From: a virus | Virus record (IMG/VR): IMGVR_UViG_3300045988_026689 | Direction: 5' to 3' (one strand) | DNA: 5,811 nt | Part shown: one piece after another, positions 2,667-5,811 of the stretch | Position numbering within the stretch: the stretch's first letter is position 1 | Layout of the letters: every line of letters starts with the position of its first letter | Made by a program: the position numbers and the translations under genes | Notes under the pieces: model-generated | What the model saw: the letters and a program-made list of their open reading frames with translations, nothing else | Told to the model about the DNA's origin: nothing | Databases searched by the model: none

Positions 2667-2819
2667 ATGAAAGGTTACGATGATTACACAGGACTGTTCA
2701 CAAGCCGCTACTACGCAAAAAAATACGCAAAAGGAGATGAGGTAGTCGTAAAAGTTGAGGGTGGATACAAAGTAATAACCGCCGACTATTATTACAAGAT
2801 CTGGAAAACGCAAAAATGA
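2667..2819 (+). CDS. Hypothetical 50-aa Tyr/Lys-rich protein, translationally coupled to the downstream peptidase.
   Basis: ATG 2667 to TGA 2817-2819: MKGYDDYTGLFTSRYYAKKYAKGDEVVVKVEGGYKVITADYYYKIWKTQK. GGTGA lies 6 nt upstream of the start. The stop overlaps the next start as ATGA (2816-2819). The ORF is too short to appear in the supplied track. It has no hydrophobic segment and I recognise no family. Confidence 0.45.
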   Translation: MKGYDDYTGLFTSRYYAKKYAKGDEVVVKVEGGYKVITADYYYKIWKTQK

Positions 2820-3226
2820 AAGGATTGACAAAAATGATTAAAAGCTACATAATGAACACAGACGGAAACGTGAAGCTTGCGAGACACTTCTCGGTAAAGG
2901 AATTCGCTTGCAAGGACGGGTCACCAGTAGTTTTCATCGACGACTACTTATACACCATCCTGGACATCCTAAGGCATAAGATAGGGAAGCCGGTAATCAT
3001 AACGAGCGGATACAGGACGCCAGAATGGAACAAAAAATGCGGGGGAGCAAAATACAGCTACCACATGCGCGGTATGGCCGCAGATATCCGGGTGGAAGGA
3101 ATGAGCGCAAAACAGCTTGCCAACGAACTGAATGCAATCATACCGGAAGAATGCGGCATTATCGTATACAAGAGCTGGGTGCACTTTGACGTGCGCACCG
3201 GCAAAAAGTACAGAAAGGGGGTGTAA
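2816..3226 (+). CDS. Zinc D,D-/L,D-peptidase of the M15 family (Peptidase_M15_3 / DUF882-like fold); putative peptidoglycan hydrolase (endolysin-like).
   Basis: The 136-aa ORF contains FSVKEFACKDG, LRHKIGKPVIITSGYRTPEWNKKCGGAKYSYHMRGMAADI and WVHFDVR. These give the SGYR...N..GG...S.H..G.A.D ... H.D arrangement of Zn ligands (H, D, H) characteristic of M15 cell-wall peptidases. The start is ambiguous between in-frame ATGs at 2816, 2834 and 2852. Confidence 0.9.
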   Translation: MKGLTKMIKSYIMNTDGNVKLARHFSVKEFACKDGSPVVFIDDYLYTILDILRHKIGKPVIITSGYRTPEWNKKCGGAKYSYHMRGMAADIRVEGMSAKQLANELNAIIPEECGIIVYKSWVHFDVRTGKKYRKGV

Positions 3227-3228
3227 AA

Positions 3229-3345
3229 ATGGCACACAGAAGCGGAGCGGGTCGAGGCGACCAGAAACGATTCACGCAGACCGCAAAACGCGTGAAAAAC
3301 GTCAACGTCCGACCAAAAGTATCACGCGGTGGCATCCGCCTGTAA
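3229..3345 (+). CDS. Small arginine/lysine-rich DNA-binding protein (phiX174 J / Chlamydia-phage ORF8 analogue).
   Basis: ATG 3229 to TAA 3343-3345: MAHRSGAGRGDQKRFTQTAKRVKNVNVRPKVSRGGIRL (38 aa, 10 R/K residues, 1 D). SD aagggggtg lies 6-7 nt upstream. The C-terminal RGGIRL resembles the ...MRGGIRF ending I recall for gokushovirus ORF8 proteins. It is not in the supplied track because it is under 60 aa. Confidence 0.7.
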   Translation: MAHRSGAGRGDQKRFTQTAKRVKNVNVRPKVSRGGIRL

Positions 3346-3348
3346 AAA

Positions 3349-3430
3349 GGCTGCATGCTGAAGGCTGCATGCTGAAGGCTGCATGCTGAAGGCTGCATGC
3401 TGAAGGCTGCATGCTGAAGGCTGCATGCAG
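3349..3430 (+). repeat. Perfect 14-nt tandem repeat (ggctgcatgctgaa) x5 plus a partial sixth copy that ends in the 10-bp palindrome ctgcatgcag.
   Basis: Units at 3349-3362, 3363-3376, 3377-3390, 3391-3404 and 3405-3418 are identical. The sixth copy, ggctgcatgcag (3419-3430), diverges at unit position 11. Each unit contains the palindrome GCATGC. The unit length is not a multiple of 3. Confidence 0.97.
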
Positions 3431-3450
3431 CAAAGAAAGGAGGTGAAGCA

Positions 3451-3555
3451 GTGGACTTTAAGGAAACCATGAACATCCTGATGAAAATCCTTGCAATGGT
3501 GGACAAGATTTACCATGCAGTGGTCAAAGAAGATGATGACAAGAACGAAGAATAA
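3451..3555 (+). CDS. Hypothetical 34-aa protein (GTG start) with an amphipathic N-half and an acidic tail.
   Basis: AAAGGAGGTG (3436-3445) lies 5 nt upstream of GTG 3451; the stop is TAA 3553-3555. Sequence: MDFKETMNILMKILAMVDKIYHAVVKEDDDKNEE. An alternative in-frame ATG at 3469 has no SD. I recognise no family, and the ORF is too short for the supplied track. Confidence 0.4.
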   Translation: MDFKETMNILMKILAMVDKIYHAVVKEDDDKNEE

Positions 3556-3566
3556 AGGAGAAAAAC

Positions 3567-3821
3567 ATGAAACTGAAATTTTACTCGTTCCGCGACGCAC
3601 TAACCAACGGCTACTCTCAGCCGTTTTTGCAGAACAACAGAGCGCAGGCAGTAAGAACGGCACGATGGAAAGCAGACGAAAGCAAGCCGAACGAAATCGA
3701 GGACATCAGCCTCGTTGAGCTGGGCGAATTCGACACGGAAACGGGATACATGAGTGAGGCAGCGCCTGAACACATCGCACGACTCATCGACCTGAAGGAG
3801 ACGACCAATGTTAAATCCTGA
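3567..3821 (+). CDS. VP5: VP5-like small non-structural protein (gokushovirus ORF5 family, proposed phiX174 protein C analogue).
   Basis: 84-aa ORF with AAAGGAG 6 nt upstream. The pattern MKLKFYSFRD......SQPF.....A.A.R.......P.E..D..LVELGEFDTETG matches the conserved layout I recall for microvirus VP5/ORF5 proteins (F.I.D.K...F..PF ... D..L...G.FD..TG). Its position directly upstream of and overlapping VP3 is canonical. Confidence 0.6.
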   Translation: MKLKFYSFRDALTNGYSQPFLQNNRAQAVRTARWKADESKPNEIEDISLVELGEFDTETGYMSEAAPEHIARLIDLKETTNVKS

Positions 3822-4230
3822 AATGATGGTGCGATACTTCGGGCTGCCGACAGAAAGAAAGACAAACAATTCTGGCAGCAAGACAGAACCAACATGGAAA
3901 GCAGTCAAACGACCAAACGGCACTACCGACTACATCCAGCAGCCGGACGAAAACATATACGAGAAAATCCAAAAAGCGGGCGAGGGCTACGACCTTGCAA
4001 GCGCAATCGCGAGGCTGGAAGCTGGAGACACCAGCATCAAAGCAAAAAGCGTGATATACACCGAGGGCACCGGCCTCGAAAATCTACCAAAAGATATCAT
4101 GACAATGCACGAAAAAGCAAACGCAGCAGCCGAAACACTGGAAAAACTGAAACAGATGAAAAAGAACGAACAACCGAAGCCGGAAGAAGAAAAAAAGGAA
4201 GAGGTGAAGGACAACGAACAGAAACAGTGA
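3808..4230 (+). CDS. VP3: Internal scaffolding protein (VP3, Chlamydia-phage scaffold family).
   Basis: 140-aa ORF with GAAGGAG 7 nt upstream. It overlaps the VP5 3' end by 14 nt and lies immediately upstream of VP1. NIYEKIQKAGEGYDLASAIARLEAGDTS......YTEGTG...LPKDIMTMHEKANAAAETLEKL resembles the conserved central part of gokushovirus VP3. It has a highly charged Lys/Glu C-tail. Confidence 0.72.
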   Translation: MLNPEMMVRYFGLPTERKTNNSGSKTEPTWKAVKRPNGTTDYIQQPDENIYEKIQKAGEGYDLASAIARLEAGDTSIKAKSVIYTEGTGLENLPKDIMTMHEKANAAAETLEKLKQMKKNEQPKPEEEKKEEVKDNEQKQ

Positions 4231-4255: not shown

Positions 4256-5811
4256 ATGGAGCGACCACGAAGCAAATTTGACCGAAGTCATCAGCTCTTG
4301 ACGACCATTAACGAGGGCGAACTCGTTCCAATCTACTGCGACGAAGTACTGCCGGGTGATACCGCACGTATTCGTCTGAACGGCCTTATCCGTATGAGTA
4401 CACCCATCTATCCAGTGATGGATAACTGCTATATGGACACATACTTCTTCTTTGTCCCGTGCCGTCTGCTGTGGGAGCACTGGCAAAACATGTTTGGGGA
4501 GAATGACACCGATTACTGGGCAGAGAAAACCGAATACAGCACGCCGACATGCAAAATTGGCGGCAAATCCGGGCTTGCAAATGGCAGCATCGGCGACTAC
4601 TTCGGACTGCCGACCGAAGTAAAAAATGAAATCCAAGTTAACGCGCTGCCTATCAGAGCATACGCAATGATCTACAACGAATGGTTTCGAGACGAAAATC
4701 TGGAAGCACCGCTAATGCTAGGCTACAAAAAAACCGATGATGCAGCAAAAGACGATTCACCGGGACCGGCAAACGCATACGCCAACCAACCGTCGTTAAC
4801 AACAAACACCAACGAAGCAAGCATGTACGGGAGAAAACCGGCCAAAGCGGGTAAGTTCCACGACTACTTCACGTCCTGCCTCCCTTCACCGTTGAAATCT
4901 GACCCTGTGGAAATCAGCCTGACAGGAGACGCACCGGTCGTTATGGGCAACTACAACGAAGTAACCGGCAAGGTAGAAGCATTTGACATGGATACGAATG
5001 TCTGGTTCAACGGCAAAGGCGCAGGAGCGGGGCGAGCCTTCAACCGGTATTACCAGAATACACAACCAGGATACCCGGCGGTAGAACTGGCAGGCCTAGA
5101 AACCAACGGAGCAACAACTCAGCCAGACGGCGGCAACATCCTAACAGGCAACCTATACGCCAACCTGAACAACGTGACGGCAATCAAAATTGAGGATTTG
5201 CGAATGGCTATTGCCTTACAGCACATTTTCGAGACTGATGCACGAAACGGCACGCGCTACCGCGAATTCCTAAGCGGAACATGGGGCGTAACGTCACCGG
5301 ACAGCCGTCTGCAGATTCCGGAATACATCGGCGGTCAGCGCATAGCAATCAACGTCAATCAGGTCGTACAGACGAGCCAGACGGACACGACAACCGGACA
5401 GGCACTGGGCAATACAGCAGCATACAGTCTGACCACATGCAGTAAGCAGATGGTTGACTATGCAGCAACCGAATACGGCTATATCATCGGTCTGGCAGTG
5501 GTACGAGTGGAGCACAGCTATCAGCAGGGACTTGCGACCAAGTGGACACGCGGTGGAAGATTTACCTACTACGACCCGCGACTGGCAACACTGGGAGAGC
5601 AGCCGGTATACAACAGAGAAATCTACGCACAGGGCACGCCCGAAGATAACGAAATCTTCGGGTACCAAGAAGCTTGGGCGGACTACCGCTACAAGCCATC
5701 TTACGTAACCGGAGAAATGAGGTCGAACTACGCGACAAGTCTGGACGCATGGCACTATGCAGACGATTATAACACGCTGCCGAGACTGTCAGCGGAATGG
5801 ATACAAGAGGG
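4256..5811 (+). CDS. VP1: Microviridae major capsid protein (VP1 / F-protein family). This is the N-terminal ~519 codons; the gene continues across the circular junction into 1-252, for 562 aa in total.
   Basis: Frame 2 has no stop codon from ATG 4256 to the window end. It is absent from the ORF track only because it has no stop in the window. Translation: MERPRSKFDRSHQLLTTINEGELVPIYCDEVLPGDTARIRLNGLIRMSTPIYPVMDNCYMDTYFFFVPCRLLWEHWQNMFGE...RAYAMIYNEWFRDENL. These are hallmark conserved blocks of microvirus capsid proteins. The frame at 5693 equals the frame of position 1. Confidence 0.95.
   Translation, partial: MERPRSKFDRSHQLLTTINEGELVPIYCDEVLPGDTARIRLNGLIRMSTPIYPVMDNCYMDTYFFFVPCRLLWEHWQNMFGENDTDYWAEKTEYSTPTCKIGGKSGLANGSIGDYFGLPTEVKNEIQVNALPIRAYAMIYNEWFRDENLEAPLMLGYKKTDDAAKDDSPGPANAYANQPSLTTNTNEASMYGRKPAKAGKFHDYFTSCLPSPLKSDPVEISLTGDAPVVMGNYNEVTGKVEAFDMDTNVWFNGKGAGAGRAFNRYYQNTQPGYPAVELAGLETNGATTQPDGGNILTGNLYANLNNVTAIKIEDLRMAIALQHIFETDARNGTRYREFLSGTWGVTSPDSRLQIPEYIGGQRIAINVNQVVQTSQTDTTTGQALGNTAAYSLTTCSKQMVDYAATEYGYIIGLAVVRVEHSYQQGLATKWTRGGRFTYYDPRLATLGEQPVYNREIYAQGTPEDNEIFGYQEAWADYRYKPSYVTGEMRSNYATSLDAWHYADDYNTLPRLSAEWIQE
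5693..5811. repeat. Terminal direct repeat, right copy (identical to 1-119).
   Basis: Same as the left copy. It runs to the last base of the window, as expected for an end overlap of a circular contig. Confidence 0.95.

Follow-up and report, generated by a model that had tools for sequence, protein, structure and literature searches.

What is the perfect 14-nt tandem repeat that lies just downstream of the J-like gene in a small single-stranded DNA (ssDNA) phage, and does it serve the virus in any way? An earlier note, made from the letters alone, had offered several answers: a protein-binding iteron array, an element controlling translation of the genes downstream, a structured ssDNA signal or a hypervariable VNTR. 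Based on the window (the whole stretch of 5,811 nt of viral DNA that was analyzed) and its relatives in public collections, we consider the last of these answers the probable one, and set out below the evidence for it and the standing of the others.

Genomic setting and structure of the array

The window represents a circular genome of 5,692 nt, its first and last 119 nt being identical (exact terminal redundancy, 1-119 and 5693-5811); the VP1 reading frame runs across both ends of the linear window. The source virus is a human-gut gokushovirus with a circular ssDNA genome, and the nearest GenBank records, KX513876 (86% nucleotide identity over 79% of the genome) and MT121961 (84% over 71%), are likewise human-gut gokushoviruses. 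Every gene of the genome is carried on the + strand, and its layout is as follows:

291-1151, + strand: VP2 pilot protein
1475-2479, + strand: Rep (VP4)
2816-3226, + strand: M15 peptidase
3229-3345, + strand: J-like (VP8-type) small basic protein of 38 aa, matching phrog_10695; its TAA stands 1 nt before the start of the array at 3347
3347-3428, + strand: tandem array as delimited by Tandem Repeats Finder (TRF); the same unit at the same site, in other copy numbers, in L006, L005, L018 and L017/L019
3355-3446, + strand: chain of mini-ORFs, which follows from the unit sequence
3420-3431, no strand assigned: perfect 12-nt terminal palindrome GCTGCATGCAGC, made by the last, variant copy
3436-3446, + strand: Shine-Dalgarno site (SD) AAAGGAGGTGA of the small gene, ancestral and outside the repeat
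3451-3555, + strand: small ORF of 34 aa with a GTG start, allele B (VDFKETMNILMKILAMVDKIYHAVV...), directly downstream of the array
3567-3821, + strand: VP5 (Phage_ORF5), matching PF20577 and phrog_1670
3808-4230, + strand: VP3-like scaffold protein
from about 4250, wrapping the origin, + strand: VP1 capsid protein

TRF detects a single array of period 14 that scores 164; it spans 5.9 copies, which match at 100% and show no indels. Five exact units, GGCTGCATGCTGAA, start at 3349, 3363, 3377, 3391 and 3405, and are followed at 3419-3428 by a partial sixth copy that, taken as a full unit, reads GGCTGCATGCAGCA and has two mismatches. With up to three mismatches allowed, chance alone would give 0.61 unit matches, and seven were not reached in any of 200 shuffles; the same scan found the unit only in the array and nowhere else in the genome. 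The perfect tandem repeat described in the earlier note is thereby confirmed, and the complete identity across the array upholds its further point that the copies have been homogenized. No second tandem repeat of comparable copy number and score turned up in 237 kb of related sequence. Furthermore, the dimer of the unit has no match in 185,579 GTDB genomes and the right junction plus unit dimer none in JGI metagenome contigs; hence, the unit is not a borrowed host repeat.

The array occupies a non-coding spacer between the stop codon of the J-like gene and the SD at 3436-3446, and TGA stops fall inside it in all three + frames, in agreement with the earlier view that it does not encode a protein repeat. 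The periodic peptides of the overlapping reading frames were rightly regarded as artefacts: when the periodic peptide of the - strand was run against the protein collection, no match scored. A coding repeat was rejected on the grounds that stops occur in every + frame, that each copy-number step shifts the frame and that all genes lie on the + strand, and a CRISPR-like array on the grounds that there are no spacers and that the unit is merely 14 nt long.

Self-complementary GCATGC cores had been suggested to let the units pair with one another, and structure predictions support this. Adjacent units are predicted to pair through GCATGC in a 6-bp hairpin (-6.9 kcal/mol as DNA, -9.9 as RNA), and the last two to form a stronger terminal hairpin (-17.7 kcal/mol as RNA and -11.8 as DNA) that appears in the RNA minimum-free-energy (MFE) fold. 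The latter stem exists as proposed, but it is 9 bp long (3406-3414 / 3423-3431) and not 8 bp, the last copy creating the 12-nt palindrome listed above. The 141-nt array region as a whole folds better than shuffles, both as RNA (z = -2.3) and as DNA (z = -2.75). As DNA, the ensemble is diffuse (MFE frequency 0.007; the centroid keeps only one 6-bp hairpin within the array), which is to be expected if the cores are interchangeable partners. When 0 to 12 units were modeled, the folding energy alternated with copy number, showing a larger gain at each even core count. A scan with Rfam 15 (E<=1) gave no match in or near the array, and a promoter scan found no + strand promoter-like site within it.

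Phyletic distribution and copy-number turnover

We compared ten contigs with an identical J-like protein, 62 IMG/VR loci with a related VP5, for which the VP5 gene served as the bait, and the GenBank relatives. The array is present in just two of the 62 IMG/VR loci; the identical J-like protein occurs in 68 blocks of the public collection, and none of the ten places listed has the array; and it is found in none of the GenBank relatives, including the two closest. It is also missing from genomes whose Rep is 92% identical. About 60 relatives carry in its place a short, non-repetitive spacer of about 12-18 nt. Typically this spacer is unstructured (the ancestral spacer is predicted at -0.4 kcal/mol as DNA) and ~12 nt long, for example GCAATACAAACC; an SD identical or closely similar to that of the window comes next, and then the small gene. 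The SD AAAGAAAGGAGGTGA or a close variant of it is kept in most of the array-less relatives. The comparison of related genomes that had been recommended for the presence and copy number of the unit thus sets four other assemblies with the array beside about 60 relatives without it: the array, confined to a single small lineage, stands where the others have a short spacer ahead of an ancestral SD.

The four other array-bearing assemblies, found by exact-pattern scans and exact-protein look-ups, are given here with their identity to the window:

L006 (IMG/VR): three full units plus the terminal copy (3.9 units); 92.2% identity
L005 (IMG/VR): two unlike versions of the array, one per contig end; 96.6% identity
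L018 (ENA): contig begins inside the array, at least 5.9 units; 100% identity over 3,390 nt
L017/L019 (ENA): at least 9.9 units at both contig ends; 99.86% identity (8 SNPs in 5,606 nt)

One version in L005 consists of three units, a variant, one unit and the terminal copy, and the version at the other end of at least four units, the variant, two units and the terminal copy. The variant, GGCTGCATGCTGCATGCTGCATGCTGAA, is a 7-nt slippage within one unit, with an internal triple repeat of TGCATGC. The terminal overlap of L017/L019, 125 nt in length, is array sequence throughout, and contig ends fall inside the array in three cases (L017/L019, L018 and L005); assemblers fail to resolve the array wherever it is longer than their k-mer length. 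The contrast between 5.9 units in the window and at least 9.9 in L019, despite 99.86% genome identity, shows that copy number turns over much faster than point substitutions build up. The option of a hypervariable VNTR is supported by this spread of copy numbers (3.9 and 5.9 units, and at least 5.9 and 9.9 where contig ends cut the array), together with the two versions in a single contig.

At the same time, the array has been retained across lineages whose flanks have diverged by ~5% and whose genomes have diverged by ~8%, and no allele with fewer than three full units was found, though the right-junction searches would have caught one. We did not take constancy of the unit as evidence for or against selection on its sequence, an unchanged 14-nt consensus being expected by our estimate about half the time at ~5% flank divergence. 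The number of GCATGC cores is even in all three fully resolved alleles (six in the window, four in L006 and eight in L005), so that no core need stay unpaired; this has a chance of 1/8 with n=3 and is a possible sign of a two-unit step or of a constraint on pairing.

The J-stop junction has also been rearranged elsewhere. L063 has a 15-nt tandem duplication in two copies (672-702), L034 a 51-nt tandem duplication in two copies that takes in the SD as well as the 3' end of J (969-1070), and L040 has lost the entire small gene at this point. This junction is a recurrent site of rearrangement, where the duplications and the deletion arose independently in other lineages.

Proposed replication slippage and comparable repeats

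In light of this distribution, we propose with good confidence that the array is a lineage-specific, fast-mutating VNTR, and that the intergenic spacer which holds it in this circular ssDNA gut gokushovirus is dispensable. Most likely the array arose by replication slippage and is itself dispensable, rather than serving as an essential signal. We posit that the growing strand loses register by one or more 14-nt units in rolling-circle or complementary-strand synthesis, while the internal GCTG...GCTG / TGCATGC sub-repeat might also permit slippage by 7 nt. The self-complementary core may aid this process in that neighboring units would fold into hairpins on the single strand, and repeated expansion and contraction would keep the copies identical by concerted evolution. 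Such an array would be tolerated because it lies between a stop codon and an ancestral SD, where it disrupts no reading frame, and because it adds just about 40 to 140 or more nucleotides when relatives vary by several hundred. The earlier description of the genome as size-constrained was overstated, given that contigs of relatives span about 5.4-6.3 kb. If the small gene, VP5, VP3 or VP1 were expressed differently because of the array, this would be a side-effect and at most modulatory. In practice, the array breaks short-read assemblies once it outgrows the k-mer. The existence of relatives without it excludes essential roles, be they as iterons, as a complementary-strand origin or in packaging.

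One expectation runs against the VNTR reading, namely that purely deletion-biased slippage would be expected to collapse an array of this kind. The lack of alleles with fewer than three units, the persistence of the array, the even core counts and the GTG start of the small gene hint at some selective or mutational bias, and we regard a modulatory role in mRNA stability or translational coupling as rather unlikely.

The array resembles bacterial and phage VNTRs in its head-to-tail identical short units, conserved unique flanks and homogenized copies, in the differences in copy number among otherwise near-identical genomes, and in the presence of a second, 7-nt slippage register. It differs from them in residing in a 5.7-kb ssDNA microvirus and in having a palindromic core that makes it also a stack of hairpins. 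Full-text literature searches returned no description of tandem repeats or intergenic hairpins of such a kind in Microviridae or gokushoviruses; nonetheless, the array reveals no new class of element.

Closest to an experimental counterpart are the engineered palindromic or tandem inserts in phiX174 of Russell and Muller in 1984 and of Williams and Muller in 1987, which were reportedly placed in the J-F intergenic region. Like these, the array is extra non-coding DNA in a microvirus and, if that site is right, it too lies directly after the DNA-binding J gene; unlike them, it is natural, has persisted across 5-8% divergence without being seen below three units, and belongs to a gokushovirus rather than a phiX-like virus. 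According to PMC6855363, phiX174 tolerates inserts of up to 163 bp while repeated identical palindromes are unstable, stability falls as repeat number and identity rise (Williams & Muller 1987, as cited there), and the insert experiments suggest a deletion bias. By analogy, the proposed slippage matches this instability of palindromic inserts. The array would thus offer a natural counterpart of those stability tests, one that could gauge rates of rolling-circle ssDNA slippage in the gut. As a natural example of a hypervariable minisatellite in a Microviridae genome, it also explains why some gut gokushovirus contigs break or circularize inconsistently at this point, and it offers a fast-evolving marker separating strains that are a few SNPs apart.

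Possible alternative functions for the array and other features of the genome

The VNTR reading has to be weighed against roles in gene expression, protein binding and ssDNA metabolism. According to the first of these, the array acts in cis within the polycistronic mRNA as a regulatory element tunable by copy number, so that the number of units sets how strongly the small gene and the structural genes are expressed. It could do so as an mRNA stabilizer or processing barrier, as a partial attenuator after the J-like gene, or as a relay in which hairpins and overlapping mini-ORFs pass ribosomes from the J stop to the GTG at 3451. We hold this to be unlikely.

The SD at 3436-3446 forms the best anti-SD duplex in the window (-17.8 kcal/mol); the claim that the strongest SD directly follows the array is therefore true, yet this SD is ancestral and kept in array-less relatives. 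The GAAGG element noted in each unit is likewise present but weak as an SD (-3.7 kcal/mol). ATG codons spaced 14 nt apart at 3355, 3369, 3383 and 3397 each open a mini-ORF reading MLKAAC*, and a sixth ATG stands at 3425. Five mini-ORFs had been described and do exist; the fifth, from the ATG at 3411, however, reads MLKAACSKERR* and not MLKAAC, and ends at the TGA at 3444-3446, inside the SD and 4 nt before the GTG. The TGA of each mini-ORF falls 2 nt past the next ATG, a layout predicted to suit coupled reinitiation.

The small gene itself is real and under purifying selection, as judged from its homologues of 36-38 aa in about 60 relatives and from the distribution of variable sites over the three codon positions (13/5/32 among 51 unique alleles). 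No exact entry for the 34-aa protein is on record, and the gene has no family annotation. It occurs as two divergent allelic types, A (MALIKVKDVKEAIALMMNILEKLDEIYHAL...) and B (MDFKETMNILMKILAMVDKIYHAVV...); the array-bearing lineage has allele B, which is also found without the array in L023, L069, L070, L073 and L083. The start codon is GTG in the array-bearing genomes and ATG in all others.

A regulatory role would be consistent with the strong terminal hairpin (z = -3.5 as RNA), which ends 4 nt before the SD, with the better-than-shuffled RNA fold of the region, with mini-ORFs that tile the array up to the SD, with the persistence of at least three units over 5-8% divergence, with even core counts in resolved alleles alongside a folding energy that alternates with copy number, and with the co-occurrence of the GTG start and the array. 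In phiX174 a partial terminator or mRNA-stabilizing hairpin follows gene J, and this parallel may be counted in favor as well. The hairpins of phiX174 and G4 (PriA site, ori_c and the partial terminators after J, F, G and H) do share with the array their hairpin-forming nature and a position after a J-type gene; they are, however, unique conserved structures, whereas the array is a degenerate repeat without a U-tract that is absent from sister genomes. Several further observations argue against regulation. Predicted pairing of the SD and start codon shows no systematic change from 0 to 12 units: the probability that GGAGG is paired is about 0.76 in eight of ten modeled unit numbers and 0.57 and 0.72 in the other two, and a switch based on SD sequestration was rejected on this flat response. 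The in-unit SD-like element is far weaker than the SD proper, and the tiling of mini-ORFs arises because the unit sequence itself dictates it. Relatives manage without such an element, L040 even without the small gene, and the co-occurrences reduce to n=1, as the array has a single evolutionary origin. A canonical intrinsic (rho-independent) terminator was also rejected: no U-run follows the array hairpins on the + strand, where GCAAAGAAAGG stands instead, and a terminator scan found a terminator-like site at the array solely on the non-coding - strand (3372-3353).

The + strand terminator-like site of the genome lies instead at 263-282, directly after VP1, and comprises a strong hairpin and T-run (AGCCTCGCAAAAGCGAGGCT ATTTTTG). 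It is likely the main transcription terminator of the genome and is a better candidate than the array for a conserved structured element.

A bolder form of the regulatory idea, to which we give still less credence, casts the array as an ssDNA phage's natural 'contingency locus', with unit number tuning expression downstream of the J-like gene. If true, slippage favoring even GCATGC counts would tune mRNA stability, attenuation or the translational coupling that joins the J-like gene with the module of the small gene, VP5, VP3 and VP1, and the microvirus population would hold heritable and rapidly reversible variation in expression.

Very unlikely, in our assessment, is the possibility that the array provides sites on the dsDNA replicative form for a dimeric protein, whether as Rep iterons, for a phage or host regulator, or for a restriction/modification enzyme recognizing GCATGC or CTGAAG. 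Six identical palindromic cores at regular spacing would fit such sites, as would the lack of GCATGC in the rest of the genome (0 observed against 1.0 expected), but this depletion is not significant; with CTGAAG observed once elsewhere against 1.2 expected, restriction-site avoidance was set aside as uninformative. The array further recalls the iterons of rolling-circle and theta replicons and of eukaryotic ssDNA viruses in consisting of short direct repeats in non-coding DNA of a small Rep-encoding replicon. Unlike iterons, however, it lies neither by rep nor by a nick site, being ~870 nt downstream of the end of rep, and it is not conserved with Rep, since genomes with a 92%-identical Rep lack it, as does the remainder of the clade. 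Its 14-nt period is out of helical phase, setting successive sites about 120 degrees apart, and an unconstrained copy number, with values between 3.9 and at least 9.9, does not resemble that of a tuned operator. A better iteron-like cluster exists upstream of rep, where TTTCAACA occurs six times at 1231-1395. The suggestion of an iteron array consequently finds no support in the array-less relatives, the out-of-phase period and the presence of this other cluster.

The cluster at 1231-1395, in the VP2-Rep intergenic region, holds six exact copies of TTTCAACA, where 0.23 would be expected, and TTCAACA variants as well. Two microviruses without any other megablast match to the genome, MG945447 and KT264791, share the segment 1231-1430 at 83-88% identity. 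On these sequence features the region is a candidate origin, iteron or promoter region, and a far better iteron or origin candidate than the array. A perfect ACT microsatellite of 6.7 copies (1395-1414), also non-coding, lies just upstream of rep and is shared with L005.

A structured ssDNA signal, either for complementary-strand priming (as with the phiX174 PriA site or the G4 ori_c) or for packaging, we regard as highly improbable. Microviruses do require a hairpin for minus-strand initiation (PMC9865509), and the + strand of the array folds as DNA better than shuffles; but such a signal should be conserved, and the close relatives carry an unstructured spacer in its place, which leaves this earlier suggestion unsupported. 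Moreover, the DNA ensemble is diffuse, and the identity among units offers no covariation.

Lastly, an assembly or amplification artefact is scarcely credible: tandem repeats are known to cause assembly errors, and there are several contigs that stop within the array and one with two conflicting versions, but the same unit, junctions and position recur in five assemblies from different projects and assemblers, the 82-nt array of the window is shorter than its 119-nt terminal overlap, taken as the k-mer size of the assembly, so that single k-mers would span it whole, and the uncertainty is limited to the exact copy number of the longer alleles.

Several further features of the genome and its relatives were observed. 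Within the VP2 coding sequence a perfect 18-nt repeat of 2.3 copies (399-440) encodes GSETTT in-frame and is shared with L005, where third-position bases differ. The identity profile of the window against L006 is strongly mosaic, ranging from 68% to 100% in 200-nt windows (for example at 4926-5100, 317-500 and 1717-1900), which points to recombination among gut gokushoviruses and a hypervariable VP1 segment. With regard to hosts, L083, the complete contig of a related phage, was assigned to the bin of a 'Bacteroides sp. CAG:545' MAG, and L084 and L085 are two tiny contigs in an Acinetobacter lwoffii isolate assembly, with a Rep that is 93-96% identical, where they are probably contamination. 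The strong SDs that precede ORF 2667, the J-like gene and the small gene would speak for a Firmicutes-type host and against a Bacteroidetes one. GATC is under-represented across the whole window (5 observed against 17.6 expected), a shortage that may be reminiscent of phiX174, in which, according to PMC5014478, GATC is absent and its absence is linked to avoidance of mismatch repair.
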